A stretch of DNA of 64,000 nt from contig CAVZGY010000010.1 in NCBI GenBank assembly GCA_963774975.1, forward strand, positions 12,815 to 76,814, in the 5' to 3' direction. Shown piece after piece: positions 26,711 to 60,281 of the stretch. Under the pieces are notes generated by a model that was given only the letters and a program-made list of their open reading frames with translations, did no database searches and had not been told where the DNA came from. The translations under genes and the position numbers were made by a program. This stretch comes from an uncultured Chloroflexia bacterium. GTDB lineage: Bacteria > Chloroflexota > Anaerolineae > Anaerolineales > Villigracilaceae. Position 1 is the first letter of the stretch. Each line of letters starts with the position of its first letter.

Positions 26711-28111
26711 CTAAATATGTATAGCCCGCCCCTCTGCGCCGTGAGCGGCCTCCATCAGCACCTCGGAGAGGGTCGGGTGAGCATGGACGTTGCGGGCGAT
26801 CTCGTGCGGGGTCAGTTCCAGCATGTGCGCCAGGGTCAGCTCGGGCAGCAGTTCGGTCACTTCCGGGCCGATCATGTGCGCACCTAAAATCTCGCCATAC
26901 TTTTCGTCCACCACAATCTTGACCCAGCCGGCATAGTCGCCCAGCCCGAGAGCCTTGCCGTTCGCCTGGAACGGGAACCGCCCCACCTTGACCGTGTACC
27001 CGCGTTCCTTGGCCTGCGCCTCGGTGATGCCAAAGGAGGCGATCTGCGGCTGGCAGTACGTGGCGCGCGGCATCATCTCGTAATCCAGCGTGACCGTTTC
27101 CGCGCCGGCGATGTTCTCGGCACAGACAATGCCCATCGCCGAGCCGACATGCGCCAGCATCAGCTTGCCGGTCACATCGCCGATGGCCCAGATGCCGGGG
27201 ACGTTGGTTTGCATCTTCTCATCGATCTCGACAAAGCCGCGCTCGCTGATCTTGACACCCACTTCTTCCAGTCCCAGTCCTTTGGAGTTGGGACGGAAGC
27301 CGATCGCCACCAGCGCCTGGTCCGCTTCGAGGACTTTGGTCTCGCCCTCAGCGGATACCGTCACCTTGACACCGGTTTTGGTCGCTTCGACCGACTCCAC
27401 CTTGTGCCCAAGCAGGGACTTGATGCCGCGCTTCTTGAACGCCTTGTCCAGCTCGGCGCTGACCTCCTCGTCCTCCAGCGGCACGAGGCGCGGCAGCATC
27501 TCGACGATGGTCACTTCGACCCCGTACGAACTCCAGACCGTGGAGAATTCCACGCCGATCGCGCCTGACCCAATCACGATCACGGACTTGGGTAACTTCT
27601 CCTGCAGGATGGCTTCGAGATAGGTCACCACCTTCTCGCCGTCCACCTTCCACGCACCGGGCACTGCCGACGTTGCGCCGGTGGCCACGATGATATTCTT
27701 TGCCTTCAGTTCGGTGACCTTGCCGTCCTTGTCGGACACGGCAACCGTGTCCTTCGCGGTCAGTTTAGCCGTGCCCATGTGGACGGTTATATTGTTCTTC
27801 TTCATCAGGAAACCGACACCCTTCACCAACCGGTCCGAGACCTGACGTGAGCGTTTGACCGCCACGCCGAAATCCAGTTTCAGATTCTCGAAGGAAAAGC
27901 CGAATTCCTTGCCGCGTTCCCGAAGAGTATGTGCCACCTCGGCATTTTTCAACAGCGACTTGGACGGGATACAGCCCACATTGAGACACACGCCGCCCAG
28001 CCATTGTTTATCCACGATGGCGGTCTTCTGCCCCAACTGCGACGCGCGGATGGCAGCCACGTACCCGCCTGGTCCTGCACCAATGACAACGACATCATAA
28101 TTCTCAGCCAT
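26711..28111 (-). CDS. lpdA: dihydrolipoyl dehydrogenase (E3)
   Basis: GAGPGGY FAD motif and redox-active [13 protein letters not shown] disulfide; 466 aa. Confidence 0.95.
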
Positions 28112-28171
28112 GAAATTCTCCTTTTAACGGGATCCTTTTCCCGATAGTGTATTCAGAACCCTGCAATTTTA

Positions 28172-28669
28172 CTACGCTTGACGGAGATGTCCGCCTTCAC
28201 CGCGACTCTTCAACCAATCCTTGACCGCCGGTCCGGTGCCCATCGACCAGGGCTTAAGCTCGGAGGGCGGGACAAGTTTATAGGCGGAGAGTTCTTCCCC
28301 CAACACGATATCTCCATGCGCTTTGATGTGATAAGCAATGACAACCTGGTTCTTCTGTGGGAAAGCATAATTTCCGATGAAACCAACGATTTCACCGTCC
28401 AGCCCCAGCTCTTCCTTCAGCTCCCGCAAGATACCGCTCTCAGGCGATTCACCTTTCTCAAGGAAACCGGCTACGATACCCAGATATTTTTCCGGCCACT
28501 CCTTGTTGCGGATCAATATTACCGAATCGCCCAACTCCACAACAGCGGCCACAACAGGAACGGGGTTATCCCAGAAAACGTAACCACACTCCGCCGAACA
28601 GGTTAACCGTTCTCGACCACCCTGCATGGTCGTCGTCAGCGAGCTGCCACATTGTGGGCAATATTTCAT
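28172..28669 (-). CDS. NUDIX hydrolase with N-terminal zinc ribbon
   Basis: CPQCG...C..CG ribbon and Nudix box GFLEKGESPESGILRELKEELG. ATG at 28669 (MKYCPQCG). Confidence 0.8.
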   Translation of the reverse strand: MKYCPQCGSSLTTTMQGGRERLTCSAECGYVFWDNPVPVVAAVVELGDSVILIRNKEWPEKYLGIVAGFLEKGESPESGILRELKEELGLDGEIVGFIGNYAFPQKNQVVIAYHIKAHGDIVLGEELSAYKLVPPSELKPWSMGTGPAVKDWLKSRGEGGHLRQA

Positions 28670-28674
28670 TGCGC

Positions 28675-29295
28675 TCAAATTGTCTTCTCCGCAACCATCA
28701 AAAACAATGGATAGGTTCTTCCACTATCATCTCCCCGCTTCCTGAATGTGTGAACAGTGGAAAACCTTACATGGCTAAAACCGGCGGCCTCAACCGATCG
28801 CAGAAGTTCCGCCCGATCAAATCCATGATGCACGCCGGTGACTTGTTTGCCGTGGAATGAGCCGTCTTCCTTCTCAAGATCGGAGATGCACAGGTAACCG
28901 CCAGCCTCGAGGAGGGTATGGAAATGTTTCAGCAACGGGTTAATTTCAGGGATGTGATGAAGCGCCATTAACGAGTAAATGATTCCAAAACGCGAAGCCG
29001 GCAGCGGGTCGCTCGAAAGGTCGAGCCTGAGCGGATGCATGTTACGCACACCCGCCGACTGGATTTTTCCCGCAAGCACATCGAGCATGCCCTGGGAGGT
29101 ATCCGCCAGTGTGATCGAAGCAAATTCATTTTGCAGTGCAAAGCTGAGCAGACCTGTGCCGCAGCCGTATTCGAGGGCGGTCATCCCCGGCTTGAGAGGC
29201 ACGGCAGCATGGATGGCGTCTGCCACCACCCGGGCACGCTCCACCTTGGCGGGATCGGAATCCCAGTCTTTGGCACGCTCATCGAAGTTGATCAC
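28675..29295 (-). CDS. class I SAM-dependent methyltransferase
   Basis: ALEYGCGTGLL motif I. The likely GTG start overlaps the E2 stop as GTGA at 29292-29295. Confidence 0.75.
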   Translation of the reverse strand: MINFDERAKDWDSDPAKVERARVVADAIHAAVPLKPGMTALEYGCGTGLLSFALQNEFASITLADTSQGMLDVLAGKIQSAGVRNMHPLRLDLSSDPLPASRFGIIYSLMALHHIPEINPLLKHFHTLLEAGGYLCISDLEKEDGSFHGKQVTGVHHGFDRAELLRSVEAAGFSHVRFSTVHTFRKRGDDSGRTYPLFLMVAEKTI

Positions 29296-30512
29296 TGCCA
29301 GTTTTCCAGCGTCTCTTTGACTTTGGCAAGGAACCAATCTGCCGAGGCGCCGTCCAGAATGCGGTGGTCGAATACAAAGGACAGATAGACCATCGGGCGA
29401 ATGGCGATGGAATCACCCCCGTTGGCATCCGTGACCACCACCGCCCGTTTTTGCATCGCGCCGACGCCCAGGATGCCGCACTGAGGCTGGTTAATGATGG
29501 GCATGGCAAACAGCGAATTGCTGACCCCATGGTTGGTGAGTGTGAACGTGCCGCCTTTAACTTCATCCGGCTGAAGTTTTTTAGCGCGCGCCCGGCTGGA
29601 GAAGTCGTTCACTGCTCGCGCAACTCCGAGAAGGGAAAGACCGTCTGCGTTCTTGATGACAGGCACAATCAAACCTTCCTCACCCAACGAGGTGGCCATG
29701 CCGATGTTGACTGCCTTGTGAACCAGCACCCCCTCGTCGGTCCAGGAGGAATTGGTCATGGGGAAGGCTTTTATTCCAGCAGCGATGGCTGCAATGAAAT
29801 AAGCTGTAAACGTCAAGTTGACGCCGTCCCGGGCAAAAGTTTCTTTATTGGCACCACGATGGGCAACGACCCGGCTCATGTCCGCTTCCATGACGGTTAG
29901 CACATGGGGCGATGTTCGCTTGCTCGCCAGCATGTGCTCGGCAATCGATTTGCGGATGACGGAATGCTTGATCAACCTGTCTCCGTGTTGTGAAATGACT
30001 GGTGTTATAACCGCCAACGTCCCGCCATTTTCCGCGAAAGCCAGCACGTCGTCTTTGGTGATGCGTCCATTCAAACCAGTCCCTTTGACCTGCTGCAGAT
30101 CGATCCCGCGCTCGGAGGCGATCTTCGCGACCACCGGGGAGATGAAGCCCAGATCCCCTTTTCCGGATGGCACATTCGTGACCACCACCGCTGTCGGTGC
30201 TGAGGCTGGTTGCGAATCAGTGACAGCAGCAGATGGAACTGATGTGCCCACTTCAGACACATCCACGTTCTCACCCGGCTGGCCGATTACGGCAAGCACT
30301 TCTCCCACTTTGGCCGGGGAGTTTTCAGGAAACAATACTTTGAGCAACACACCCGTCGCTGGTGAGGGGATTTCGGTGTCCACCTTGTCGGTATTGACCT
30401 CGAGCAAGGGTTCCAACTCCTTGACTTGGTCACCTTCCTGCTTAAGCCACTTCGTTATGGTTACTTCTTCAACGCCTTCGCCTAAGCGAGGGACAAGGAC
30501 TTTAGTCAGCAT
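29292..30512 (-). CDS. 2-oxoacid dehydrogenase E2, dihydrolipoamide acyltransferase
   Basis: Lipoyl domain (VNTDKVDTEIPS), E3-binding domain and catalytic FDHRILDGA motif. Confidence 0.95.
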   Translation of the reverse strand: MLTKVLVPRLGEGVEEVTITKWLKQEGDQVKELEPLLEVNTDKVDTEIPSPATGVLLKVLFPENSPAKVGEVLAVIGQPGENVDVSEVGTSVPSAAVTDSQPASAPTAVVVTNVPSGKGDLGFISPVVAKIASERGIDLQQVKGTGLNGRITKDDVLAFAENGGTLAVITPVISQHGDRLIKHSVIRKSIAEHMLASKRTSPHVLTVMEADMSRVVAHRGANKETFARDGVNLTFTAYFIAAIAAGIKAFPMTNSSWTDEGVLVHKAVNIGMATSLGEEGLIVPVIKNADGLSLLGVARAVNDFSSRARAKKLQPDEVKGGTFTLTNHGVSNSLFAMPIINQPQCGILGVGAMQKRAVVVTDANGGDSIAIRPMVYLSFVFDHRILDGASADWFLAKVKETLENWQ

Positions 30513-30590
30513 GTGCAGCTCCTAATATTCACCACAAAGAACACTAAGTGTCACAAAGGACTTCTTCGTGCGCCTTCGTGCCCTTTGTGG

Positions 30591-33017
30591 TCATTTGATC
30601 TTTGGGTATTTCCCTGGCGATACTTCGTACATCATTTCATACACGGCATCGAAGATGGTCTCCGCATTCGGCTTGGACCAGTAATCGCCATCTGAGCCAT
30701 AGGCGGGCCGATGAGCGGACCCGGGCAGCGTCCTCGGCGCGGAATCGAGCCAGGCATAGCCGCCCTGATTCTCCAGCACCTCCTGCATCATATAGGCTGT
30801 CGTGCCTCCCGGCACGTCTTCGTCCACGAAAAGGATGCGGCTTGTCTTTTTGAGCGATTCGAGTATCGCACCATGAATGTCAAACGGCAGCAGGGATTGC
30901 ACATCGACCACCTCGGCCTCGATTCCCACCCTGGATAACTTATCAGCGGCATCCAACGCGATACGGCAGCAGGCACCGTAGGTGACGACCGTCGCATCCG
31001 TACCCGTGCGCAGGATCTCGGGAATGCCCGGCAGCACAGTGATGTCACCAAGGTTATCCGGCAGGCGTTCTTTCACGCGGTAACCGTTCAGCACCTCCAC
31101 CACCAGCCCCGGGTCGTCGGACTTGAGCAGGGTATTGTAAAAGCCGGCGGCGCGGGTCATGTCGCGCGGGACAAGCACGTGCATACCCCGCACCAGGTGG
31201 ATGATCCCCGCCATGGGTGAACCGGAATGCCAGATCCCTTCGAGACGATGGCCTCGCGTGCGGACGATGACCGGGGCTTTCTGTCCGCCTGCGGTGCGCC
31301 AGTGAAGCGTGGCGAGATCGTCGCTCATCAGTTGCAGCGCGTACAGCAGGTAATCGAGGTACTGTATCTCACAGATGGGGCGCAGCCCGCGCATCGCCAG
31401 GCCGATGGCCTGCCCGAGGATGGTCGCCTCGCGGATGCCGGTATCCGAGACGCGCAGCGCGCCGTATTTCTCCTGCATCCCCTTGAAGCCCTGGTTAACA
31501 TCGCCCAGCCTGCCCACGTCCTCGCCAAAGGCGACCAGTCGCGGCTCGCGCGCGAGCATGGCATCAAAGGCGAGGTTGATGACCTCGAATCCCATCAGCG
31601 TGGGCGATTTTGCAGAATAGGTCGGCGCAACGGCAGGGACCTTCAATGCGGATGTATTGTCTTCGATATAAAGCAACGCATTGTAATAGGATTCATTCTT
31701 CGCGTCATCGGCTTTTTTCCACTCCACCAGAGCATCTCGCGCTGGACTGGCCTCATCGCGCATCAACCTCAGCGCTTCATGGACATGCATGTGCATATCC
31801 CGCCGCACCGGGGCAGGGATGGCAGCGAGCCGGTCCTTGATACCTCGCAAAGTGTCGGAATGTGTGGAGGCAACCGTAACCTGCTCGAGAAGTTTCAAAA
31901 CCTGCTGACGTTCAACAAGCAAAGGGTTGAGGTAGGCCTCCCAGGCGGATTTGCGAATATCCTCGATCGCCTGGGCATCCTCAACCTCCCAGGATTTGAG
32001 TTCCTTGTCGGAAGCCACCTCGCTGGCGATGATCCACTCGCGCATCTTGCGCAGCCCGTCGTACTCCTCCTCCCACTTGAGCCGCTCAGCGGACTTGTAG
32101 CGCTCATGGCTGCCGCTGGTGCTGTGCCCGAGCGGTTGGGTCACGTCGACCACGTGCACCAACGCAGGGATGTGATACGTGCGGGCGATCTCGGCCGCAG
32201 TTTGATAGGTCTCATAGAGCGCGGGGTAATCCCAGCCGCGGACCGAGTACAGGTCATAGCCGCGGTCGGCCTTCTCCGCAGGGAGCGAGGCGTCACGCTC
32301 GAACCCCTTCAGGATCGCGCCGATATTTTCCTTGACCATCTGGAACTGATTGGGGACGGAGATGCCGTAGCCATCGTCGAAGATGGAGATGACCGCGGGA
32401 GCCTTGAGCACGCCGATGGCGTTGACCGATTCCCAGAACATGCCCTCGGCGGTGGACGCATTTCCGATGGTCGCCCAGGTCACCTCGTCGCCGCTGCGGG
32501 AGAAGCGAGTCTGGTCTTTGAGCGACTCCAACTCGCGGTACAGGCGCGAGGCGTAAGCCAGTCCGACCGCGCGCGGCATCTGGGCAGCAGTCGGGGAGAC
32601 ATCCGCAGCGACGTTGTACATCCCCGTTTGATCGCGCCATGAGCCGTCCGGGTTGATAAAGCGCGAGACGAAATGTCCGTTCATGGATCGGCCGGCGGTC
32701 GCGGGCTCGTAATACAGATCCGTGTGGGCATAGAGCTGGGCAAAGAACGCGCTGAATTCCAGGACGCCGAGCGCGAACATCCAGGTCATGTCCCGGTAGT
32801 AACCGGAGCGCCAGTCGCCCCGTTGAAAGGCGCGCGCGATGGCGAGCTGTGGAATTTCTTTGCCGTCGCCAAAAATACCGAATTTTGCCTTGCCCGAGAG
32901 CACTTCGCGCCGTCCAATGACGGATGCCTGGCGGGAGCGGTAGGCGAGGCGGTAATCCTTGATGATCTCTTCCGGAGGCAGGGGCAGGTTTATGGACTTG
33001 CGCTTGGGCATGGTCAC
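30591..33017 (-). CDS. 2-oxoacid dehydrogenase E1, fused alpha/beta subunits (TPP-dependent)
   Basis: 808 aa. The N-terminal alpha-like TPP-binding half and C-terminal beta/transketolase-like half form one ORF directly upstream of E2. Confidence 0.9.
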   Translation of the reverse strand: MTMPKRKSINLPLPPEEIIKDYRLAYRSRQASVIGRREVLSGKAKFGIFGDGKEIPQLAIARAFQRGDWRSGYYRDMTWMFALGVLEFSAFFAQLYAHTDLYYEPATAGRSMNGHFVSRFINPDGSWRDQTGMYNVAADVSPTAAQMPRAVGLAYASRLYRELESLKDQTRFSRSGDEVTWATIGNASTAEGMFWESVNAIGVLKAPAVISIFDDGYGISVPNQFQMVKENIGAILKGFERDASLPAEKADRGYDLYSVRGWDYPALYETYQTAAEIARTYHIPALVHVVDVTQPLGHSTSGSHERYKSAERLKWEEEYDGLRKMREWIIASEVASDKELKSWEVEDAQAIEDIRKSAWEAYLNPLLVERQQVLKLLEQVTVASTHSDTLRGIKDRLAAIPAPVRRDMHMHVHEALRLMRDEASPARDALVEWKKADDAKNESYYNALLYIEDNTSALKVPAVAPTYSAKSPTLMGFEVINLAFDAMLAREPRLVAFGEDVGRLGDVNQGFKGMQEKYGALRVSDTGIREATILGQAIGLAMRGLRPICEIQYLDYLLYALQLMSDDLATLHWRTAGGQKAPVIVRTRGHRLEGIWHSGSPMAGIIHLVRGMHVLVPRDMTRAAGFYNTLLKSDDPGLVVEVLNGYRVKERLPDNLGDITVLPGIPEILRTGTDATVVTYGACCRIALDAADKLSRVGIEAEVVDVQSLLPFDIHGAILESLKKTSRILFVDEDVPGGTTAYMMQEVLENQGGYAWLDSAPRTLPGSAHRPAYGSDGDYWSKPNAETIFDAVYEMMYEVSPGKYPKIK

Positions 33018-33314: not shown

Positions 33315-34487
33315 ATGACACGACAAAATTCAACTATACTTGTCCCCATGTCCATGCCCTTGCCCGTTTCGCAAGTAAACATCCCTCCCGGAGTGATCGA
33401 CCTGGGCGCCGGCAACCCGCCGTTTTCGCTGCTGCCGCTTGACCTGCTGCGCGCCGCCGCCGAATCCTGTTTCGCGCGCGGGGATCCCGACTTTTTACAA
33501 TACGGCGCCGAGCAGGGTGACGGCTACTTCCGCCTGGCGCTGGCTGGGTTTCTCACCGACGGCTATGGATTTCCAGTAAACGCCAATAATCTCTTCGTGA
33601 CGGACGGCATCTCCGGCGGGCTGGACCTGCTCTGCTCGCTCTTCACCCGCGCTGGAGACACGATCTTCGTCGAAGAGCCCTCCTACTTCCTAGCGCTGCG
33701 CATCTTTGCCGATCACGGCTTGAAAGTCGTGTCCATTGATACTGATGAGGATGGATTGGTGGTCGAATCGCTTGAGGAGAAGTTAAAGGAAAACCGCCCA
33801 AAATTCCTGTACATCATCCCCACCTACCAGAATCCCAGCGGGCACACCCTATCCGCAGAACGACGCACGCGTCTTGTGGGACTGGCGCGGGAATATGATT
33901 TCCTGATCCTGGCGGACGAGGTCTACCACTTCCTGAGTTATGACCAACAGCCCCCGAAAGCGTTTGCCGCCTGGACGGAAGACCCCCACATCCTATCCCT
34001 CGGCTCGTTCTCCAAGATACTCGCCCCCGGTCTGCGGCTGGGATGGATTCAGGCAGGCACGGAAAAGATCCAAAAACTGGCAGGCTGCGGCCTGCTGGAC
34101 AGCGGCGGCGGGTTGAACCCGTTCACCTCCGCCATCGTGCGCGAGGTTATCGAATCGGACGGATTGATTCAGAACATCGTTCGGCTGAAGGATATCTACA
34201 GGTCAAAGCTGAATGTGATGGATTCCGCCCTGCGTCGCCACCTCCCCGAATTAATCTGGAAAGTGCCGCAGGGTGGGTATTTCTTATGGGTGCGCCTGCC
34301 CAATGGAATGGATGCGGCAGGACTGCAAAATAATGCGCTGGAAAACAAGGTCAACTTCCGTCCAGGCTTGCGCTTCTCCAGCCAGGACGGGCTGCGCGAC
34401 TTCATTCGATTGAGTTTTGTGTTTTATGAGGCTGATGAGATCGATGAGGGGATTGTGAGATTGAAGAGTTGTTTTGCGCATGTCTAA
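33315..34487 (+). CDS. class I/II PLP-dependent aminotransferase
   Basis: YQNPSGHTL and SFSKILAPGLRLGW (Lys for PLP). The start is ATG 33315 or 33348. Confidence 0.85.
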   Translation: MTRQNSTILVPMSMPLPVSQVNIPPGVIDLGAGNPPFSLLPLDLLRAAAESCFARGDPDFLQYGAEQGDGYFRLALAGFLTDGYGFPVNANNLFVTDGISGGLDLLCSLFTRAGDTIFVEEPSYFLALRIFADHGLKVVSIDTDEDGLVVESLEEKLKENRPKFLYIIPTYQNPSGHTLSAERRTRLVGLAREYDFLILADEVYHFLSYDQQPPKAFAAWTEDPHILSLGSFSKILAPGLRLGWIQAGTEKIQKLAGCGLLDSGGGLNPFTSAIVREVIESDGLIQNIVRLKDIYRSKLNVMDSALRRHLPELIWKVPQGGYFLWVRLPNGMDAAGLQNNALENKVNFRPGLRFSSQDGLRDFIRLSFVFYEADEIDEGIVRLKSCFAHV

Positions 34488-34559
34488 ATAGGTGGCCAAA
34501 TAGCCAAGCTTTCCAGCACGTGCAGATAGAGCTATGGGTGGAATTAGTTTTTACTAGCC

Positions 34560-34976
34560 TCATCTCGAAAAATATATATCAATGGGGATATTTTTTTCAG
34601 CTCCACAATTTTGGCATGTCAAGCCACCGACCATGAATTGACTAAGGTTTTTAGGCTTTCTATGGTAGGACATTTGGCTACCGCAAATCCTACAAATAGT
34701 ATGTTGTTTTTGGTTCAGCCGCTCAAGCAATAAAGTACGTGCTCCTGCATAGTCGATGACACTTTTATTTATTCTCAGCCAGCCAACCATTAAAACAATT
34801 CCAAATATCAGAATATTTCTAACCACATCCGTTCTATCGCTTGTTATAGCCATAACAGCCGCGACCGTTAAGAAAACAACGATAAATATAACTATCGAGA
34901 TTCGTTTAGAAACCCAGATACTCAGAATCATCAGGAACATAGCCAGCAAGATTAAAAAACCAATTACCCATTCCAT
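34560..34976 (-). CDS. small membrane protein with C-terminal zinc ribbon (cassette ORF C)
   Basis: Three hydrophobic helices, then CRIC...CQNC. AT-rich codon usage unlike the flanking DNA. Confidence 0.55.
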   Translation of the reverse strand: MEWVIGFLILLAMFLMILSIWVSKRISIVIFIVVFLTVAAVMAITSDRTDVVRNILIFGIVLMVGWLRINKSVIDYAGARTLLLERLNQKQHTICRICGSQMSYHRKPKNLSQFMVGGLTCQNCGAEKNIPIDIYFSR

Positions 34977-35111
34977 ATGTTTCTAAATCCCAGACTTGAA
35001 ACGACGAATTCAATCATGTTTGTTTTTGAAAATTAGCTATCTGGTTGTGCGGTATTAAATTTACTTGAACAGAAAACTGAGTGATGGATATCAAACCGCC
35101 TTCCTGTTATA

Positions 35112-35187
35112 TCACTTCAACCGTTCCGTCACCCTTGCACCACATCCAGCATCTTGACCCTATCGCTGGCTGTCGCGTCGGTTGGAG
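35112..35187 (-). repeat. relic R1: decayed copy of a CCG-protein gene 3' end
   Basis: The minus strand reads ..TDATASDRVKMLDVVQ.. then, after a 1-nt slip, VTERLK-stop. It shares the core TTCAACCGTTCCG with R2 and R3. Termini CTTCAACCG and CGGTTGGAG are inverted. Confidence 0.7.
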
Positions 35188-35213
35188 CACCTTAGTGTGC
35201 AACCAATGATTAT

Positions 35214-35600
35214 TTATATCATCCGTGGTATTTGCGATGAATGCTGATGAATGATGGGCGATGCTTTTGAAATATCAATAACAAAAGTAAATCGCGCTTC
35301 ATAGGTGATCAATTCGTCTTCCACACTGAATTTCCACTGATATATCCCGCTGACGACGAAAAGGATTGCATTCAGCTGTTGAGTCTTAATGGTTTTAGGA
35401 TGTAAAGTTAATTTCAGATTCTTTCTGCTGAATAATTTTTTGAAATACTCCCTGATTTTCTCCGGTGTATTTTGTATACGATCAGAAAATGTAGGAATAA
35501 TGATCGCATCGTGATCATATAGAGCCAATAAATTTTCCAGCTCGCGTTGATGCACCAGTTTTATCCATCTCTCAACGATTTTCAGTGGGTTGCGAAGCAT
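35214..35600 (-). CDS. NTF2/SnoaL-like (DUF4440-like) small protein (cassette ORF B)
   Basis: About 128 aa from ATG 35600 (MLRNPLKIVERWIKLV...). The alpha+beta cone pattern is typical of the family. AT-rich. Confidence 0.6.
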   Translation of the reverse strand: MLRNPLKIVERWIKLVHQRELENLLALYDHDAIIIPTFSDRIQNTPEKIREYFKKLFSRKNLKLTLHPKTIKTQQLNAILFVVSGIYQWKFSVEDELITYEARFTFVIDISKASPIIHQHSSQIPRMI

Positions 35601-35695
35601 ATGGATTACATCTCCAATTCTTGATCCCAATGGTTTACTAACGTGGTACGGAATCCAGCGAGAGGATCTCCGTAACGGTCGAATATGAAGAGTAC

Positions 35696-35776
35696 TTATT
35701 TCAACCGTTCCGCCACCAACTCTACCACATCCAGCACCTTGACCATACCGCCGTCCAGTGGAATCGATGTTGAATT
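35696..35776 (-). repeat. relic R2: intact in-frame copy of a CCG-protein gene 3' end
   Basis: The minus strand translates IPLDGGMVKVLDVVELVAERLK-stop, compared with ADGGVVNVMDVAEIVAKRLKA-stop at the end of gene 40275..42293. Inverted termini are TTCAACCGTTCC and GGAATCGATGTTGAA. Confidence 0.75.
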
Positions 35777-35788
35777 CCTTCTTTATGC

Positions 35789-36238
35789 TTATTTATATTT
35801 TAATGATGCTTCGCATTCACCTGTCATTCTATTTCCAATGCATAAATTTAAGCGCAGTACATCATTCCTCTGTTGATACTGCTGATAGAGGCAATCTGCA
35901 AGTATCATGGGCTGATTTGAACCGCCCGCAAAGAAAGCCGCTTCCCACTTGCAATGATCGTTAGCCACCGTCTCCCAATCAGCCTCGATTTGTAGAAGAT
36001 CCGCGTAATGCGATGCATCCATATGTCCTTGCAACTCATTAATGAGCAAATTTAATTTTTCTTGTTCAGTCTGGCTCAATCGGCTTACACATTGATTCAA
36101 TTCCAATTGAGTCAATGCGGATGAACAATTGTTTACTGGCGTAGTTTCCGGGGTCGGAGCTGATTTGGTGGGTTGTGAAGAACACGCGGAAAGTGCAATT
36201 ATTGAAAGAGTTCTTCCCACTAGTAATATAGGTTTCAT
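35789..36238 (-). CDS. lipoprotein, DUF1311/LprI-like (cassette ORF A)
   Basis: Lipobox IIALSAC. The pattern ELNQC...W...C...GGS...C...R matches the DUF1311 family. Confidence 0.65.
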   Translation of the reverse strand: MKPILLVGRTLSIIALSACSSQPTKSAPTPETTPVNNCSSALTQLELNQCVSRLSQTEQEKLNLLINELQGHMDASHYADLLQIEADWETVANDHCKWEAAFFAGGSNQPMILADCLYQQYQQRNDVLRLNLCIGNRMTGECEASLKYK

Positions 36239-36341
36239 GATCGCGAATCGAAGAAGTGAGCTCCTAACTGGTGTTTAGTCGGCCCGTCTGTCACTGTGTG
36301 GCACTTCGGCACAACTTATAGACGGCCAAAAAATAATCCGC

Positions 36342-36393: not shown

Positions 36394-38277
36394 TCACAAC
36401 TCCAACTGCGCCGCGAGCACCTCTGCGACATCCATGACTTTCACCTTTTCGTTGAGCGCCTTGGATTTGGTCGCGTCCTCGAACATGATCATGCAATAGG
36501 GACAGGCGGTCGCGACCACGTCCGCTTTCGCGTCGAGGGCATCCTGCAGGCGGTGATGATTGATGCGCGTGGTGATGTCGGTTTCGAGCCACATGCCGCC
36601 GCCCCCGCCGCCGCAACACAGACTATCCTCCATCTTTCGCGCCATCTCAACGCGCTGAACCCCAGCCTTGTCCAGAAGCGCGCGAGGTTCCTTGTAGATT
36701 TCATTGTAGCGCCCAAGATAACAGGAGTCGTGATACGAAACCCTGCCCTGAACGCCGTTCGGGTTCGATCCCGGAACGGGGAGGTTCAATTCAGCCAGCA
36801 GTTCCGTGTAATGCATCACTTTGTAATCGCCGCCCATCTGGGGATATTCATTCTTGAGCGTGTTGAAGCAATGCGGGCAGGCTGTGACAACGCGGTTGAA
36901 CTTGATCTTGCTGAAGGTTTCGATATTCTGTTTGGCAAATTCCTGGAACATGTACTCATGCCCCATGCGGCGGGCCGTTTCACCGCAGCACATTTCATCA
37001 AAACCCAGCACGCCAAAATCCACGCCTGCTTTTTGCAAGAGTTTAACGAAGGCTCTCGCCACTTTTTTGTTGCGCTGATCGAAAGCCGCCGCGCACCCGA
37101 CGAAGTAGAGCACATCCACCTGGTCGCCTGCGGCAAGTTCGCGCACATTCAGTCCCTCCGCCCATTCCATTTTCTGGTCGGGGGGAATCCCCCAGGGATT
37201 CGCCTGCCGCTCGAAGTTGCGGAGCAGGTCCGAGATGGCCTTCGGCAATTTGCCGCTGGTCAGCGCCTGGAAACGGCGCAGGTCGATCACTTCGTCAACA
37301 GGGTTGATGAAGACCGGGCACTTGACGATACACGCGCCGCAGGTGGTGCACTGCCAGGAATAATTCTCCGGCACCACGTTGCCAAGCAGGTCGGCCTCGG
37401 GTTTGGCTTCCCCCGTCAGCAGGGCATTGTTCATCCCTTTGCGCATCATTTGAACGAGATCGCGGGGCGAGTAATCCATGCCGCTGATATTGGCGGGGCA
37501 GGCCTCCTGGCAGCGCCCGCACTTCAGGCAGGCATCGAACGAGAGCAATTGCTGAGGTGTGAATTCTGCGATCTTGCCGACACCGAGGAGTTCCGTCGTT
37601 TCGATATCCTCGATCTTTTGCATGGCGCCCATGGGCTCTTGAGGGCGCACGAGAATGTTGAGCGGACCGGTGAGCATGTGGCGCAGTTTTGTGAACGGCA
37701 CAGACGCCACAAGCAGGAGTGCAACGATCACATGCACGACAACAAGGGTGTTATGCCATTCGAAGGCCTGTTGGGTCGTCATGCCGGCGGCAAGAAAAAC
37801 ACCCGCCAACCAATTGCCGATGGGGGACCAGGCCGCCCAGGGCGGATCGACCACCATCAAGCGCGTCGCTTCGTTGGTGAACCCGATCAGCGCGAGAAGA
37901 AGCAGCATGGCCAGGGCATACCAGTCATCCCAGCTGGTTTGTAATGCTTTGGGGCGCAGCACCAGGCGGCGGAATCCCGCCATCAACACGCCGAGGATGA
38001 TAAAGAGGCCGGCGACATCCATGGCCGTTTCGTAGCCGAGATACCAGCTCATGCGGGGGAAGGTCTCCAACGCAAAGGGCAGGAACAACTTCATCTGCAT
38101 CAGGTTGATGGCCGTTCCGATCACCTGAACGACCACCCCCCAGAAGATCAGGAAGTGCATCAGGCCGGGATACCATTTCTTGAGGATACGTTTCTGCCCG
38201 ATCACCTGGACAAAAAAATCCCGGAGCGCGTGTTTATGCAGGATCAGGCGTGGAGCTTGCTGGGTTGTTGTGGTCAT
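36394..38277 (-). CDS. membrane Fe-S oxidoreductase: NarI-like heme-b TM domain + 2x[4Fe-4S] + two CCG domains (HdrD/DsrMK-like fusion)
   Basis: The N-terminus has 5-6 TM helices with conserved His. Motifs are CLKCGRCQEACP, CTTCGACIVKCP, MCCGETARRMG and LCCGGGGG. The start overlaps the Rieske stop (ATGA). Confidence 0.85.
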   Translation of the reverse strand: MTTTTQQAPRLILHKHALRDFFVQVIGQKRILKKWYPGLMHFLIFWGVVVQVIGTAINLMQMKLFLPFALETFPRMSWYLGYETAMDVAGLFIILGVLMAGFRRLVLRPKALQTSWDDWYALAMLLLLALIGFTNEATRLMVVDPPWAAWSPIGNWLAGVFLAAGMTTQQAFEWHNTLVVVHVIVALLLVASVPFTKLRHMLTGPLNILVRPQEPMGAMQKIEDIETTELLGVGKIAEFTPQQLLSFDACLKCGRCQEACPANISGMDYSPRDLVQMMRKGMNNALLTGEAKPEADLLGNVVPENYSWQCTTCGACIVKCPVFINPVDEVIDLRRFQALTSGKLPKAISDLLRNFERQANPWGIPPDQKMEWAEGLNVRELAAGDQVDVLYFVGCAAAFDQRNKKVARAFVKLLQKAGVDFGVLGFDEMCCGETARRMGHEYMFQEFAKQNIETFSKIKFNRVVTACPHCFNTLKNEYPQMGGDYKVMHYTELLAELNLPVPGSNPNGVQGRVSYHDSCYLGRYNEIYKEPRALLDKAGVQRVEMARKMEDSLCCGGGGGGMWLETDITTRINHHRLQDALDAKADVVATACPYCMIMFEDATKSKALNEKVKVMDVAEVLAAQLEL

Positions 38278-38711
38278 GATTCGCCCACCTTGACGTAAAT
38301 TTGTCCGTTCACGATTTCTGTCTCAAGCGCCAGAAGCGGTTTGGGCGGAGGGCCGCTGATGACCGAACCATCCTCCAGCTTGAAGTAACCTTCATGGCAG
38401 GGGCAATCGATCGTTCCTGTCTGGTTGTTCCATTTGACGGTGCAGGCGAAATGCGTGCAAGCCGCGGAATAGGCTTTCAGCCCGTCGGGAGAGTTGATCA
38501 CAATGGCGGGGTACCGCCCGAAGGGAATGGTGCGGGATTCTCCGACCGGCAGTTCATCCTCCCCGCAAACGAGCTCAGGTTCGGATGGATAGATCTCCAA
38601 TTTGGCCGGGAAAAAATAGGCTACCACGGGCGCGGCGACCACGCCGGCGCACAGGGCGATTCCAACGCCCTTCACCAGTGTTAGAAAGTCATGTCGGGTA
38701 ATGTCAGGCAT
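38274..38711 (-). CDS. Rieske [2Fe-2S] protein
   Basis: CTHFAC and CPCHEG boxes. N-terminal TRHDFL signal-anchor-like segment. ATG at 38711, 3 nt after the upstream stop. Confidence 0.9.
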   Translation of the reverse strand: MPDITRHDFLTLVKGVGIALCAGVVAAPVVAYFFPAKLEIYPSEPELVCGEDELPVGESRTIPFGRYPAIVINSPDGLKAYSAACTHFACTVKWNNQTGTIDCPCHEGYFKLEDGSVISGPPPKPLLALETEIVNGQIYVKVGES

Positions 38712-38713
38712 CG

Positions 38714-39148
38714 CTAACTCACTTCTCCCCAGACGGTCAGGGCAATGACAATGATCAATGCGATCACGGAGAGGGCGGCGCGAATCCACCAGGCCCGTTT
38801 TGTGTCATCTTTTTTATCGATGAAGGGCAGGAACATAAACGCCAGCAAACCCACGATCACCGCAACCGTGACGAATACCCTGCCTTCGATCTGACCCCAA
38901 AACACATAATCGGGGACCACCTTGAGCAACTGGTATAGAAAAAGGAAGTACCACTCGGGTTTGACATGCAGGGGTGTATCCAGCGGGTCGGCGGGGTCCT
39001 CCAAACCGACATGAAAGAACATGCCAAGCGCACCGACGAGCACAACAATACCGATGATGACGAGCATCACGCGGAGCTCGGTCATAAAATGGTCCGGGTA
39101 GAAGGGGACGCTGTCGTCGTGTTCCGGTTCGGGATGAGGGGTGGTCAT
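38714..39148 (-). CDS. cytochrome b6f-type subunit IV (cytochrome b C-terminal domain)
   Basis: [10 protein letters not shown] (PEWY Qo motif) and three TM helices. Confidence 0.85.
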
Positions 39149-39156
39149 ATCTCCTC

Positions 39157-40125
39157 CTAGAGTGGGCGCATGACGCCGAGCCGCCGCACCATCATGAAGT
39201 GCCCCAGCATGAAGGCGACGGTAATGATTGGCACGACAAGGATGTGCAAGCCGTAGAATCGTCCCAACGTGGCTTCAGTAACCCCCCAGCCGTCGCGCAG
39301 GAAGATCAGCACCAGGTTGCCAATCGCAGGTACGGAACCGGCGATCTCTGTGCCGACTGTGCTTGCCCAAAACGCGCGCTGATCCCACGGGAGCAAATAG
39401 CCTGTAAAACCAAAAGCGAGCGTGAGGATGAGCAGCATCACGCCGCTGACCCAGTTCAATTCGCGCGGGGCTTTGTAAGTCCCCATGACGAAGACCCGAA
39501 TCATGTGCGCGATGCACATCACGATCATTCCGTTGGCAGCCCAGTGGTGGATGGAGCGGATGGCGGCGCCGAAATAGACCTCGTTCTCGATGAATTGAAT
39601 GCTGGCGTAGGCGTCCGCGGCAGTGGGTTTGTAATAGAACGCCAGCATGATCCCCGTCGTTCCTTGAACGATAAACAGGAAAGCCGTAATACCCCCGAGG
39701 CAATACCACCACCTGCGTGCAAAGCTATGCACGGGTTTATTGGCGATCTCCGAAAGCGGACCCGAGATTTTATAACGGTCATCCACCCATTCGTAGGCGC
39801 GTTTCGTCAGCGGCTTGAAGGGTTTACGCTGGGTCCAGACGGATGCGGATTGATAGAAGCCAAAGAGAAAGACCAGCCCCAGCGTTCCAAACACCAGCCA
39901 GCGCGATGTGGGAGTCCACAAGTTGGTATGCTCGCCTTGAATATGACAATGCAGGCACGGCTCCTGCTTGGTTTGTGGAACTTCAGGGGAAAATTCGCTG
40001 ACCGCCTGTCCGGCCGAGGCGACCGGCTGGTAAGCCTGTCCATGGAGAAAAGTCGCCAGGAACAGCACGCCAGTGAGGATTAGAATGGCTGTTCCGGTGA
40101 AAAGGAACTTGCGGGCTAGCGGCAT
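39157..40125 (-). CDS. cytochrome b6-type protein with an N-terminal two-TM extension bearing a CxxCH heme-c motif
   Basis: HH-x12-H in helix B ([16 protein letters not shown]), H-x14-H in helix D ([16 protein letters not shown]) and YCLGGIT (heme ci-type Cys). CLHCH lies at 39943-39957. ATG 40125 follows GAGGTG; a GTG at 40131 is an alternative start. Confidence 0.85.
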
Positions 40126-40254
40126 AGACACCTCTCAATATCGAACAACGGTCCCTGCCCCCGCTGGTGTGGCGGATCACTAGACTGATAACAGGGCAAT
40201 GGTTTGGTTCTACTCGTACCCGCCCTTGTGCGTTTCCTTTAATTCTCTAAAAAC

Positions 40255-40263
40255 AGTATAGCA
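40255..40263 (-). promoter_or_regulatory. extended -10 promoter (TGcTATACT) upstream of the cytochrome b gene
   Basis: Minus-strand TGCTATACT in the 143-nt gap between gene 40275..42293 and cytochrome b. Confidence 0.4.
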
Positions 40264-40274
40264 TCTTGAACAGG

Positions 40275-42293
40275 TTAAGCCTTAAGACGTTTGGCAACTA
40301 TTTCCGCGACATCCATCACATTAACCACCCCCCCATCAGCCTTGGACGCATCCGTGAGCATGATCATACAGAAGGGGCAGCCCACCGCCAGCGTTTCAGC
40401 GCCAGCCGAAGGTCCTGCTGCACTTAGCAGGGTCGCCTTGGCTTCGGCAAAGCGTGCGCGGTTGACGTTGGTATCGCCGTGTTCCTCCTCCTTCCACATC
40501 TGCGCGCCGCCTGCGCCGCAGCAGAAGGATTTATCCTTATTGCGAGGCATCTCGATCACCTCCAGCCGGGCAGCCTTCAGGTCATCCCGAGGCGCGTCGA
40601 AGACCTGGTTGTGCCTGCCGAGGTAACACGGATCGTGGAACGTCACCCGTAACTGTTCACTACTCTCCACTAACTGAATCTTCCCCGCCCCGACCAGTTC
40701 ATTGATCAACTGCGTGTGATGGATGACCGTATAGTTCCCGCCGAATTGGGGATACTCATTCTTCAACGTATGCAGGCAGTGCGGGCAGGTGGTGACGATC
40801 CGCCTGGGCGCCACCTCGTTCAGGATGTCCACATTTTGCCTAGCCAGCCCGAAGAAAATGTCCTCACGCCCGGCGCGCCGCGCTGAATCACCTGTGCAGG
40901 ATTCATTCTTTCCAAGAACTGCAAAATTCACGCCGGCGGCATTCAGGATTTGTGCAAATGCCTGGGCTGTCTTCTGGGCGCGCGAGTCCGTGGCCGGCGC
41001 GCAGCCCACCCACCACAATAGTTCCGGCTCGGGGTTCTGCTCAACCGTCGGGACGTTCAACCCTTCCGCCCACTTCATACGGTCTGACTGGCTGATGTTC
41101 CATGGATTCGCGTTGCGTTCCATACCCTTGAACGCCGTCTCCAATTGCTTCGGGAAACTACTTTCCATCATGGAGAGGTTGCGACGGATGTCGAGGATGT
41201 CACGCATCGGTTCGTTACCCACCGGGCAGATGTCCACGCACGCGCCGCACGCAGTGCATGCCCAGACAGACTCCTCATTAATCGCATACTCCAACAGGGG
41301 GGTATCCATCGCGCCGCCGTGGTTCAGGCGATAGCGCTTGTTGATTTCCAGCGCGGCGGGACTCAACAGTTTGCCAGTGTTGTATGCCGGGCAGACTTCC
41401 TGGCAGCGGAAGCACATGATGCAGGCATAGCTGTCCATCACCTGCTCCCAGCCAAGGTCGGTCAGCCGCGCCGCGCCAAATTGTTCAATGGACTGATCGT
41501 CGAGGTTGATATATCCCATCTGACCGATGGATTTACGTTCAGGCTTGAGCGCAAAGTTAAGCGGCGCAAAGAACATGTGGACGTGTTTCGAGTACGGGAA
41601 GTAAGGCAGGAAGGCAAGGATCGACCCAAAGTAAACCCAGAAAAAGGCATGCTCGCCCAGCGCGATCACGTTCGCATCCATGCCGGACCAGATCCCTGCA
41701 AGCGCGGAGGCAACGGGCTCCCACACATTCGGCCCGCCCACGCCTGCGAGATAAAAAGAGTTGGTGAACAGGCGCGCAGAGTTACAGATCACAATGAAGA
41801 GTACAACGATCAACGAATCCCGTTTGATTCCGGAACGGGCGCGTGGATCCAACAGGCTCGTCTCACGCGTGGATAGGTTTGCCGGGCGGAAGACAAAGCG
41901 TCGAACCGCCATGAACAGGGTACCGATCAACACTGTTACAGTCGCAACGTCCGCGAACGACAGGTAGAGGCGGCCGAACAAGCCCAGATGATCGAGCGCC
42001 CTGAACCCCGTGAGCGCGTAAATCGAATCGGCAAGGTCGATCACCAACAAGCAGAGAAAACCCCAGCCGATGAGGGCGTGGAACAGGCTGGGGATGAAGC
42101 GATAACGGAAGACTGGCTGGAAGCTGACGACCTTGAAGAAAACATCCACAATACGACTACGCGCAATGCGCCAATCGGGCTTACCCTGCCCGCTGGCGAT
42201 GATGGCGATAATCCGCCGGACGCCGCGCCAGGTGAAATACAGTGATAGGCCGACAGCAACGATAAACAGGATTTTCTCGACAGGGGTCAGCAT
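40275..42293 (-). CDS. membrane Fe-S oxidoreductase, paralogue of 36394..38277 (NarI-like TM + 2x[4Fe-4S] + CCG domains)
   Basis: CIMCFRCQEVCP, CTACGACVDICP and FCCGAGGA. The first CCG box is degenerate (SCTGDSARRAG). ATG 42293 follows GAGGTG; a GTG at 42299 is an alternative start. Confidence 0.85.
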   Translation of the reverse strand: MLTPVEKILFIVAVGLSLYFTWRGVRRIIAIIASGQGKPDWRIARSRIVDVFFKVVSFQPVFRYRFIPSLFHALIGWGFLCLLVIDLADSIYALTGFRALDHLGLFGRLYLSFADVATVTVLIGTLFMAVRRFVFRPANLSTRETSLLDPRARSGIKRDSLIVVLFIVICNSARLFTNSFYLAGVGGPNVWEPVASALAGIWSGMDANVIALGEHAFFWVYFGSILAFLPYFPYSKHVHMFFAPLNFALKPERKSIGQMGYINLDDQSIEQFGAARLTDLGWEQVMDSYACIMCFRCQEVCPAYNTGKLLSPAALEINKRYRLNHGGAMDTPLLEYAINEESVWACTACGACVDICPVGNEPMRDILDIRRNLSMMESSFPKQLETAFKGMERNANPWNISQSDRMKWAEGLNVPTVEQNPEPELLWWVGCAPATDSRAQKTAQAFAQILNAAGVNFAVLGKNESCTGDSARRAGREDIFFGLARQNVDILNEVAPRRIVTTCPHCLHTLKNEYPQFGGNYTVIHHTQLINELVGAGKIQLVESSEQLRVTFHDPCYLGRHNQVFDAPRDDLKAARLEVIEMPRNKDKSFCCGAGGAQMWKEEEHGDTNVNRARFAEAKATLLSAAGPSAGAETLAVGCPFCMIMLTDASKADGGVVNVMDVAEIVAKRLKA

Positions 42294-42487
42294 GCGCACC
42301 TCGAAAGAAAAAACGCGGACGGTTTCCGATTGATGGTGAGGTTCCCTTCCGCGTTGCCGTATATTATTTTACTTGAACTTGGTTGAATTGTTGTCCTTTC
42401 CCGCCAACCCTCACACGACCCTGACCCTACCCCAGCCCCAGGTAGGACGCTGTGGGGAGACCATTGCCAAGCGGGACGATAGACTCT

Positions 42488-43153
42488 TCACCTGTTTTTA
42501 CAGGCCAGGATCACGTCCACTGGCAACCCCCACAATACGAGAGCCTTAGCTTCCACAATTTGAAATCCAGCTTTCACGATTATGTCTCTGGCAAAGATAG
42601 GCCGGCAATCAATAAAAGTAGGGAACCGCAAGTGCAGCCACTCGTAAAATCCAACAACCGGTCCCTTCCTTTTTGCGAGTGTCACCACACTAATCCGTCC
42701 ACCAGGATTCAACACCCGCCGGCACTCCTCCAACACAATGGGCAGCTCGGAAGTGTCGAATAACTCCAATGTGAAGCTCATGAACAACGCATCGAAGGAA
42801 TTGGCCGGGAAGGGAAGATGAGCCGCATCGCCGCATTGAAGCATGGCCTTATTTTTCGACCCCCTCCGGAACAACCGGCTGCGCGCCTGCCCCAGCATTC
42901 CCTCTGAAAGATCGAGACCGTAAATCCGGCCTTCAGGACCAACCTGATTTGCCAGGGTCAACAAGCTGTGCCCTGTGCCGCATCCCGTCTCGAGTATCGT
43001 CTCCCCCGCCGCGGCATTCAGCAGTTCGAGACCCTTCTCCCGGAACTTGCGCTCGCTGCTTCCGGCGATCAGGTCATACCACCCGCTCAGCCGGTTGTAG
43101 CTGGATCTCGCTGCATGTTTTGAGCGTGTGACGCGCGTCACCTCGGGCATCAT
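42488..43153 (-). CDS. class I SAM-dependent methyltransferase (UbiE/COQ5-like)
   Basis: ILETGCGTGH motif I and RVLNPGGRI. Confidence 0.8.
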   Translation of the reverse strand: MMPEVTRVTRSKHAARSSYNRLSGWYDLIAGSSERKFREKGLELLNAAAGETILETGCGTGHSLLTLANQVGPEGRIYGLDLSEGMLGQARSRLFRRGSKNKAMLQCGDAAHLPFPANSFDALFMSFTLELFDTSELPIVLEECRRVLNPGGRISVVTLAKRKGPVVGFYEWLHLRFPTFIDCRPIFARDIIVKAGFQIVEAKALVLWGLPVDVILACKNR

Positions 43154-60274: not shown

Positions 60275-60281
60275 ACAGGAG

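Follow-up and report, generated by a model that had tools for sequence, protein, structure and literature searches.

A Rieske/cytochrome b6 operon of Anaerolineae with a predicted haem c module on cytochrome b6 and a constantly linked EtfD-like gene

Gene content and conservation of the operon

We analysed a stretch of 64,000 nucleotides (the window) from an uncultured Chloroflexia bacterium of the order Anaerolineales (GenBank assembly GCA_963774975.1, contig CAVZGY010000010.1, positions 12,815 to 76,814 of the forward strand), in which five co-oriented genes of the minus strand (36394-42293) encode, in this order, a membrane protein with iron-sulfur and CCG domains (CCG1), cytochrome b, subunit IV, a Rieske protein and a second CCG protein (CCG2). 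A first-pass annotation of the same DNA had described this gene set, its coordinates and the spacing of its last four genes (8, 2 and -4 nucleotides, nt), and all three are confirmed by Pfam searches and by inspection of the sequence. The domains that it named (PF00033, PF00032, PF00355, 4Fe-4S and PF02754, with NarI in CCG2) were likewise recovered by profile search. The features are as follows.

40275..42293, minus strand: CCG1, with Fer4_8 and two CCG domains (Pfam)
40255..40263, minus strand: extended -10-like motif TGCTATACT, read from the sequence, inside the 143-nt gap between CCG1 and cytochrome b
39157..40125, minus strand: cytochrome b6, 322 amino acids (aa) from the ATG at 40125; PF00033, E = 9e-53
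39802..40125, minus strand: N-terminal extension of cytochrome b6, predicted as transmembrane (TM) helix, outward loop of about 50 residues, TM helix
39943..39957, minus strand: CLHCH, a c-type haem attachment motif (CxxCH), predicted on the outer (P) side
38714..39148, minus strand: subunit IV, PetD/QcrC-N-like, with three TM helices and the PEWY motif; PF00032, E = 9.5e-14
38274..38711, minus strand: Rieske [2Fe-2S] protein, 145 aa from the ATG at 38711, with a Tat-type signal anchor; PF00355
36394..38277, minus strand: CCG2, with PF02665 (NarI), Fer4 and two CCG domains (PF02754)

The start of cytochrome b was placed at the ATG at 40125 because the homologues open with MPLARK. Its TAG is followed by 8 nt, which include a GGAGGA ribosome-binding site, and then by the ATG of subunit IV, whose own TAG stands 2 nt before the Rieske ATG at 38711; a longer, GTG-initiated open reading frame (ORF) proposed for the Rieske protein by the ORF finder was set aside as an over-extension. 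The Rieske TGA and the CCG2 ATG share 4 nt as ATGA.

A scan of one genome per GTDB species gave 196 relatives, and the best 80 of these 196 loci were analysed; all 80 come from metagenome-assembled genomes of Anaerolineales/Chloroflexota, with cytochrome b identities of 56-95%. Wherever enough downstream sequence was available, cytochrome b, subunit IV, Rieske and CCG2 were contiguous and co-oriented (73 of 73 loci, by tblastn), the seven loci left out of this count being contigs that end early. The Rieske gene ends in ATGA in 70 of the 73, and the ATG of this overlap is the predicted CCG2 start in at least 50 of them. The arrangement is far beyond chance, and the Rieske-CCG2 junction looks like translational coupling. 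An apparent Rieske-CCG2 fusion in locus L006 proved to be a frameshift artefact, the true Rieske C-terminus lying in another frame. The first-pass annotation had set conservation of CCG adjacency in relatives as a test of its proposal, and when this test was run the adjacency of CCG2 was nowhere lost. The link between Rieske/cytochrome b and CCG genes that it drew from a single genome thus stands for CCG2, and not for CCG1, which is only loosely linked; "bracketed by two CCG proteins" describes the window's own clade, as CCG1 lies directly upstream in only 11 of the 80 loci.

The Rieske-CCG2 pairing recurs in a second, divergent lineage (cytochrome b 52% identical), in all three contigs examined. 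There, cytochrome b is fused to subunit IV, the Qo motif reads PAWY, the CxxCH extension is kept, and the Rieske gene is preceded by one or two additional small TM ORFs. At L083:2345-2910 and L092:2524-3167, in this lineage, a pair of short hydrophobic ORFs, of 124-141 aa and 64 aa, separates the fused cytochrome b/IV gene from the Rieske gene, and these may encode extra small subunits. A metagenome scan with the divergent fused cytochrome b (P0243) returned only relatives of 26-32% identity and was uninformative. The nearest b6 outgroups, at about 50% identity, possess neither the extension nor a CCG gene, and one of them has the order Rieske-b6-IV-multihaem cytochrome c. The c-fused cytochrome b6, the Rieske-last order and CCG2 therefore travel together.

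The Rieske/cytochrome b6 core and its N-terminal extension

Judged by its ligand residues, the core is a complete b6-type unit, competent for a Q cycle and with the Rieske protein on the P side. The hallmarks of b6 reported earlier (split cytochrome b, H-x14-H, YCLGG and PEWY) are all present and are invariant in the relatives. In an alignment of 15 homologues, the haem b ligands of helix B (H-x13-H, His193/His207) and helix D (H-x14-H, His294/His309; numbering from the ATG) are invariant, as is the Cys of WWYCLGG, so that the ligand residue for covalent attachment of haem ci is conserved in cytochrome b6. The PEWY Qo motif of subunit IV is found in 76 of 76 loci. The best PDB matches of the cytochrome b ORF are cytochrome b6 chains (E = 2e-63), over residues 111-324 only. 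The best NCBIfam match, ExtP, a b-type cytochrome of selenite/tellurite operons, was rejected, since it scored 250 bits against a cut-off of 290 and differs in its Rieske/PEWY context.

The Rieske protein carries the cluster boxes CTHFAC...CPCHEGYF, with Gly and Phe at the positions of the potential-raising Ser and Tyr of bc1, a substitution typical of a low-potential, menaquinol-type Rieske. A Tat motif, [ST]RRDFL, is found in 68 of 74 Rieske orthologues, the window having the variant TRHDFL. The Rieske gene lies downstream of cytochrome b (order b6-IV-Rieske), as had been noted from the sequence. The core thus resembles the b6f complex and the Firmicute-heliobacterial b6c complex (the "green clade") in its split b6 and IV, H-x14-H, YCLGG Cys, PEWY and Tat-anchored Rieske. 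It differs from them in having a single CxxCH in a two-helix extension of b6 instead of cytochrome f, a dihaem c or a IV-cytochrome c fusion, in its gene order, which does not place the Rieske gene first, and in the EtfD/Hdr-like gene coupled to Rieske.

In the operon there is no gene for cytochrome c1, cytochrome f, a dihaem c or a subunit IV-c fusion, and to that extent the first-pass statement that such a gene is lacking was right, but it had passed over the invariant CLHCH inside the cytochrome b ORF itself. This ORF exceeds a cytochrome b6 by about 108-110 N-terminal residues. Two TM segments are predicted in the extension (7-25 and 78-96), with positive residues at their cytoplasmic ends, the first helix being preceded by Arg/Lys and the second trailed by a basic stretch; because positive residues mark the cytoplasmic ends of helices, the loop between them is placed on the P side, which is where c-type haems are attached. 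An AlphaFold2 model of cytochrome b6 with its extension has helices at 5-34 and 74-102, and at a mean pLDDT of 48.9 can be read for secondary structure only.

The pattern C-x-x-C-H-[ILV]-x-G-[EQ]-...-W-x-P-x-x-R-W is invariant across the 15-homologue alignment. The CxxCH motif occurs within the cytochrome b ORF of 79 of the 80 loci, the remaining one being a miss of the regular expression, and is kept in the divergent 50%-identity representatives P0241, P0243 and P0245. Searched alone, the extension gave no Pfam match at E<=10, no NCBIfam match and no meaningful PDB match. Of 150 50%-identity representatives from a search across 1.8 billion representative proteins, no more than the top 8 or so align to the extension, and the others align to the b6 core alone. 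The complex almost certainly carries a haem c on this minimal module fused to cytochrome b, with covalent attachment predicted from the motif. Because a c-type haem motif is fused to cytochrome b, the complex is not an acceptor-less bc module; the extension, though not homologous to cytochrome c1, cytochrome f, a dihaem c or a IV-c fusion, probably takes their place.

The two CCG proteins and the genes around them

Both CCG proteins are homologues of EtfD (Rv0338c), the mycobacterial ETF:menaquinone oxidoreductase, a wire from ETF to menaquinone with five TM helices, one haem b, two cubane clusters, a non-cubane [4Fe-4S] cluster and a linear [3Fe-4S] cluster (PMC13083937). Against chain A of the Mycobacterium smegmatis EtfD structure (PDB 9ojn_A), CCG1 scored E = 1.6e-108 and CCG2 E = 1.1e-101, and both share with it (9OJN) a single chain that combines a NarI-like haem b domain, two cubane clusters and two CCG domains. 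The related EMO of Syntrophus (SaEMO) is HdrDE-like and has a proximal haem and a distal twin haem (bioRxiv 10.64898/2026.08.18.745454). In EtfD and EMO alike, the clusters of the CCG domains are non-catalytic and relay electrons to or from the quinone pool (PMC13083937; bioRxiv 10.64898/2026.08.18.745454). The CCG-type catalytic (disulfide) site suggested by the first reading is not borne out by this homology, which makes of these clusters relays. All 8 cubane-cluster Cys and the Cys/His ligands of the CCG domains are conserved in both CCG1 and CCG2; the two differ at one position, where the motif reads "CT" or "CC".

CCG1 has an extra N-terminal TM helix (residues 4-22), a NarI-like domain, two cubane [4Fe-4S] sites and two CCG domains with "CT". 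Across all 18 orthologues it keeps 25 of 26 EtfD cofactor ligand positions. These include the haem ligands His74/His241, aligned with His78/His241 of EtfD, the menaquinone-site residues Phe81/Phe230, with Phe at both positions of the pocket in 18 of 18, and Thr469, so that the position of EtfD Thr539 is occupied by the Thr that gives the linear [3Fe-4S] cluster. The protein is better read as a conventional, stand-alone EtfD-type ETF:menaquinone oxidoreductase with a quinone site of its own, an assignment that follows its ligand pattern. Its gene adjoins cytochrome b on the upstream side in the 11 loci mentioned above, and two others have it no more than about 2 kb away; another 12 have it at a distance of 6-8 kb or on the opposite strand, giving 25 of 80 loci with CCG1 at 10 kb or less from cytochrome b, and elsewhere it was not found within +/-10 kb. 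CCG1 is thus read as functionally related to the complex, yet outside it.

The extended -10 motif reported in the 143-nt gap is indeed present, as TGCTATACT at 40255-40263, and may be the operon's own promoter, which would fit with CCG1 not being upstream in most relatives. It was not listed by a consensus promoter scan, which requires a -35 element, and the promoter and terminator scan of the region gave nothing decisive. Directly upstream of CCG1 lies a UbiE/MenG-family methyltransferase gene (42488-43153, minus strand), whose best NCBIfam matches, all below cut-off, are demethylmenaquinone methyltransferases, and which may be a quinone-biosynthesis gene beside quinone-dependent enzymes.

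CCG2 departs from this pattern in its membrane domain. When the published ligands of EtfD were mapped onto 30 orthologues, CCG2 was found to keep every Cys and His ligand, including the invariant haem b ligands His41/His200, aligned with EtfD His78/His241. Its predicted TM segments, however, number only four, and a hydrophobic helix at the N-terminus is lacking, so that helix I of EtfD and EMO is missing. Val48 and Leu189 (Ile in 1 of the 30) stand where EtfD has the menaquinone-site residues Phe85 and Phe230, Asp118 takes the place of Arg150, and the first CCG domain reads "CC" and not "CT", with Cys at the position of Thr539. The long disordered C-terminal tail of EtfD is lacking as well. 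His469, which completes the proximal non-cubane cluster and is inactivating in EtfD, is invariant. An AlphaFold2 model (pLDDT 66.7) has 9ojn as its best Foldseek match (E = 6e-26, TMq 0.61), followed by LutA and HdrB.

Two further His residues of CCG2, His175 and His182, are invariant in the 30 orthologues. The second stands 18 residues ahead of His200, matching the spacing of His233 and His251 in SaEMO, where the His at -18 ligates the distal twin haem and helix I contributes to the quinone pocket (bioRxiv 10.64898/2026.08.18.745454); His182 is by this spacing a candidate distal-haem ligand. In the outer loop 58-83, 7 of 26 positions are invariant in CCG2 compared with 0 of 24 in CCG1, at similar overall divergence. 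CCG2 is therefore like SaEMO and HdrDE in its domain plan, in the His 18 residues before the proximal-haem His and in both non-cubane Cys sets, and unlike them in the loss of helix I and in having as partners Rieske/cytochrome b (and, in relatives, an FrhB-like protein), not ETF or methanogenesis genes. From EtfD it differs by the lost helix, the Val/Leu pair, the "CC" and its place in a Rieske/cytochrome b operon. The CCG2-type protein of the divergent lineage also lacks helix I and keeps His41, Val48, Asp118, His182, Leu189 and His200; its first CCG domain is without its Cys ligands, with the operon retained. On these residue patterns CCG2 is a distinct subtype, a specialised paralogue of the EtfD/EMO/HdrDE-like proteins.

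A candidate for a cytoplasmic donor comes from the relatives. In about 56 of the 80 loci (among L010-L080), a gene of about 322 aa lies directly 3' of CCG2 (as it also does at L081:13773-14744 and L082:12048-13016), with a weak match to the FrhB/FdhB C-terminal domain, a C-terminal 2x[4Fe-4S] motif and, as best PDB matches, beta subunits of F420-dependent formate dehydrogenases. This FrhB-like protein is a candidate cytoplasmic flavo-Fe-S donor module. One protein, P0158, has 975 aa, the length expected for a fusion of CCG2 with the FrhB-like protein, and additional Fer4 matches; length and Fer4 domains are weak evidence for such a fusion. In the window, the position of the relatives' FrhB-like gene is occupied by a patch of low GC content (34000-36300, 0.44 against about 0.57), common only to the closest relatives L001 and L002, with genes for a 138-aa membrane/Cys-rich protein, a SnoaL-like protein and an LprI-like lipoprotein. 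The patch may be an insertion or a replacement.

In 21 of the 80 loci the operon has genes for the E1, E2 or E3 components of 2-oxoacid dehydrogenases at its side, variously arranged, for instance as CCG1-E1-E2-E3-...-cytochrome b, which in some loci resembles a single unit, or E1-E2-[histidine kinase and NarL-type regulator]-cytochrome b-...-CCG2-FrhB-like-E3. In the window, 26711-33017 (minus strand) encodes a fused alpha/beta E1 (808 aa), E2 and the dihydrolipoyl dehydrogenase E3, and the set is also near the operon in L040, L047, L048, L054, L058, L059, L061, L067, L074 and L077. We rejected membership of these genes in the same operon, as a histidine kinase/response regulator pair intervenes between E1-E2 and cytochrome b in relatives. 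The adjacency may be inherited synteny, or it may reflect a link, either of EtfD with acyl-CoA-producing catabolism or of CCG chemistry with lipoamide.

The regulatory pair itself, made up of a HisKA_3 histidine kinase and a response regulator of the NarL/GerE type, directly precedes the cytochrome b operon in several of the relatives (some 1-2 kb before cytochrome b in L040, L048, L054, L059 and L067; L081:1-1009), which suggests dedicated redox or oxygen regulation. It was not found at that position in the window.

Elsewhere in the window, a gene group at 56189-63007 may form a haem-based module for sensing or electron transfer. Its upstream part (56189-60274) encodes a GAF histidine kinase and a GAF-containing response regulator. 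Downstream of these, on the plus strand (60282-63007), come an ORF of 388 aa, which has five CxxCH motifs and matches no NCBIfam family, and then one of 501 aa, which has two CxxCH motifs and sensor-kinase-like regions. The only Rfam matches in the window are two tRNA genes (3692-3764 and 3847-3919, plus strand). Genes for a lipoyl protein ligase (LplA/B, 13873-14613) and a DAGK/YegS-like kinase (7943-8902) are also present; a second lipoyl protein ligase gene adjoins an outgroup Rieske-cytochrome b pair (L087), and a DAGK/YegS-like kinase lies just downstream of the operon in the divergent lineage (L083, L092). These co-occurrences are probably coincidence.

A possible electron route, its alternatives and its meaning

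The reading that we favour, and to which we would give an even chance, is that CCG2 serves as the dedicated cytoplasmic-side electron-input module of a menaquinol:cytochrome c Rieske/b6 reductase. Positions 36394-40125 would then form a single operon encoding a menaquinol-oxidising Rieske/cytochrome b6 complex of an Anaerolineae type. The core of the complex, which contains haems bL, bH and ci, the PEWY subunit IV and a Tat-exported low-potential Rieske, would run an ordinary Q cycle; the single CxxCH haem on the cytochrome b6 extension would fill the role of c1 or f at the outer face, and from it a membrane-bound acceptor or oxidase of this monoderm would receive the electrons. CCG2 would be made in fixed proportion with Rieske by way of the ATGA overlap. 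A cytoplasmic donor, probably the FrhB/FdhB-like flavo-Fe-S protein in most relatives, and ETF or another in the window's lineage, would reduce the two non-cubane and two cubane Fe-S clusters of CCG2 and, through them, its haem b, from which electrons would reach menaquinone, or directly the Qi/haem ci side of cytochrome b6, with oxidation then following at Qo. Haem attachment, physical association, the identity of the donor and the direction of electron flow are what we infer in this scheme. A dependence of CCG2 on the bc core is favoured because helix I and the quinone pocket of EtfD have been lost, because the coupling is tight and because it persists across lineages.

Several observations weigh against this scheme. 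The AlphaFold2 models are of low to moderate confidence (pLDDT 49 for cytochrome b6 and 67 for CCG2). The candidate sixth ligand of haem c, His28 (numbered from the ATG; H30 where the alignment is numbered from the GTG), never varies within the main lineage but is missing from P0243. As for donors, the FrhB-like gene is found neither in the window nor in its closest relatives L001-L009, and the ORFs scanned in the 64-kb window include no etfAB and no acyl-CoA dehydrogenase gene. EtfD and EMO have been purified and solved as single-chain enzymes linked to the quinone pool (PMC13083937; bioRxiv 10.64898/2026.08.18.745454). Co-transcription alone could explain the linkage of Rieske and CCG2, and, by analogy with SaEMO and HdrE, the conserved His182 and the constrained loop could form a P-side quinone site belonging to CCG2 itself, in which case a direct wire to Qi would be unnecessary.

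These last points lead to the strongest of the alternatives, which we consider unlikely and yet a serious contender, namely that CCG2 is a free-standing EtfD/EMO-type donor:menaquinone oxidoreductase, with a quinone site probably on the P side, which is merely co-transcribed with a Rieske/b6c complex that re-oxidises the menaquinol, the two being linked through the quinone pool and shared regulation. EtfD and SaEMO do work as single-chain enzymes, CCG2 has every haem and Fe-S ligand that an autonomous wire needs, His182 and the outer loop fit an EMO/HdrE-like distal quinone site, and the two-component system upstream in several relatives is what one would expect of a regulated respiratory operon. 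Left unexplained, however, are the loss of TM helix I and of the EtfD quinone-site residues, and the ATGA coupling in 70 of 73 loci together with a pairing that is kept despite altered gene structure. Moreover, the same genomes retain in CCG1 an EtfD of its own standing, free of any tie to the operon.

Returning to the input-module reading, a stronger form of it would make CCG2 a true subunit, wired electronically into the Rieske/cytochrome b6 core and coupling a cytoplasmic redox reaction directly to the Q cycle; this we regard as doubtful. The proximal haem of CCG2 would contact haem ci/bH on the cytoplasmic side or, alternatively, the contact would be made at the outer side, between a distal haem and the fused haem c or the Qo region. 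Electrons might thus be injected at Qi without free quinol, or quinol-based bifurcation might deliver them to a cytoplasmic acceptor. An input of electrons from ferredoxin to haem ci has been proposed for cyclic flow.

One might also speculate that the wiring runs outwards, with CCG2 as an electron exit to the cytoplasm in quinol-based bifurcation or reverse electron transport, the low-potential electron of Qo travelling through bL/bH/ci, or electrons leaving the P-side haem c through the distal haem of CCG2, towards F420 or NAD(P)+ via the FrhB-like protein, or towards ETF. With its proximal haem, candidate distal ligand and constrained P-side loop, CCG2 does look like a transmembrane wire, and in HdrDE electrons run from the P-side quinol site inwards to the CCG domain (bioRxiv 10.64898/2026.08.18.745454). 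There is precedent for cytochrome b modules joined to Hdr- or MvhD-type Fe-S modules (Kao and Hunte, PMC4122944), and quinol-based bifurcation or reverse electron transport has been proposed for anammox Rieske/cytochrome b complexes, as cited in PMC12954380. Nevertheless, judging from standard potentials, menaquinone and a low-potential Rieske would give a marginal drive against the membrane potential for the reduction of NAD(P)+ or F420; the residues of the Qi side, like the Cys for haem ci, are intact, so that a normal Q cycle is available; and there is no acceptor gene within the window. We therefore hold this outward route to be distinctly improbable.

Sulfur-oxidiser sHdr systems act with lipoate-binding proteins, which lends some interest to Hdr-type chemistry here. 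That the complete CCG clusters of CCG2 act on thiols and disulfides (with the dihydrolipoyl arm of E2 from the nearby 2-oxoacid dehydrogenase, or a thiol of low molecular weight, as the substrate), coupled to the quinone pool or the bc complex, seems to us very improbable: both CCG domains of CCG2 do have the full Cys set, like HdrB/HdrD and unlike CCG1, and 2-oxoacid dehydrogenase genes do stand beside the operon in 21 of 80 loci (in the window at 26.7-33 kb), but His469, the EtfD-inactivating His of the proximal non-cubane cluster, is invariant, the non-cubane clusters of SaEMO are non-catalytic (bioRxiv 10.64898/2026.08.18.745454), the re-oxidation of lipoamide needs no new enzyme where E3 is present, the neighbourhood is perhaps inherited synteny, and such chemistry can hardly be obligatory because in the divergent lineage one CCG cluster, the distal one, is without its Cys ligands and the operon is kept.

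Some known systems come close to the arrangement in which CCG2 would feed the Rieske/cytochrome b6 core. The mitochondrial ETFDH-complex III-COQ2 metabolon offers a functional analogy, as it ties an ETF-linked quinone reductase, both physically and in function, to the Rieske/cytochrome b complex (PMC10896730), although ETFDH is not homologous to EtfD or CCG2 and the association there is post-translational, not operon-encoded. The "PDWF-FeS" clade of Kao and Hunte likewise combines a whole cytochrome b, carrying a Qo motif, with Hdr/MvhD-type modules (PMC4122944); that clade has no Rieske protein and its soluble modules are fused to cytochrome b, whereas the window has a canonical Rieske protein, PEWY and a separate NarI-like/CCG membrane partner. 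Anammox Rieske/cytochrome b complexes with extra oxidoreductase subunits and flavin Fe-S modules (PMC12954380) are a further likeness.

The operon is apparently undescribed, and its parts come from known families (b6-type Rieske/cytochrome b; EtfD/EMO/HdrDE). The first-pass annotation knew of no description of such a complex, and none emerged from the literature searched, which lay mostly outside subscription papers and covered reviews of Rieske/cytochrome b diversity, a survey of Qo motifs, Anaerolineae genomics and the structure papers on EtfD and EMO. Neither the N-terminal haem c module, nor the CCG2 subtype, nor their obligate operonic union was found there.

Anaerolineae are among the most abundant bacteria of wastewater sludge, sediments and salt marshes, and their "complex III" has so far been scored merely as present or absent. 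A minimal haem c module on cytochrome b6 would be a third solution to the role of c1 and f, beside separate cytochromes c and those fused to subunit IV. The obligate partner of this complex comes from the HdrDE/EtfD/EMO family, whose first structures date only from 2025-2026. If CCG2 is only co-regulated with the complex, its subtype would be a new branch of EtfD/EMO, with a different membrane domain and probably a different donor. If it is physically attached, the operon would be a natural and genetically defined example of a Q-cycle enzyme to which a quinone reductase is docked, and so a counterpart in bacteria of the mitochondrial ETFDH-CIII metabolon. It would then provide a test bed for the debated acceptance of electrons by haem ci from the cytoplasmic or stromal side, and evidence on how cytochrome b and dehydrogenase modules have been joined in evolution.

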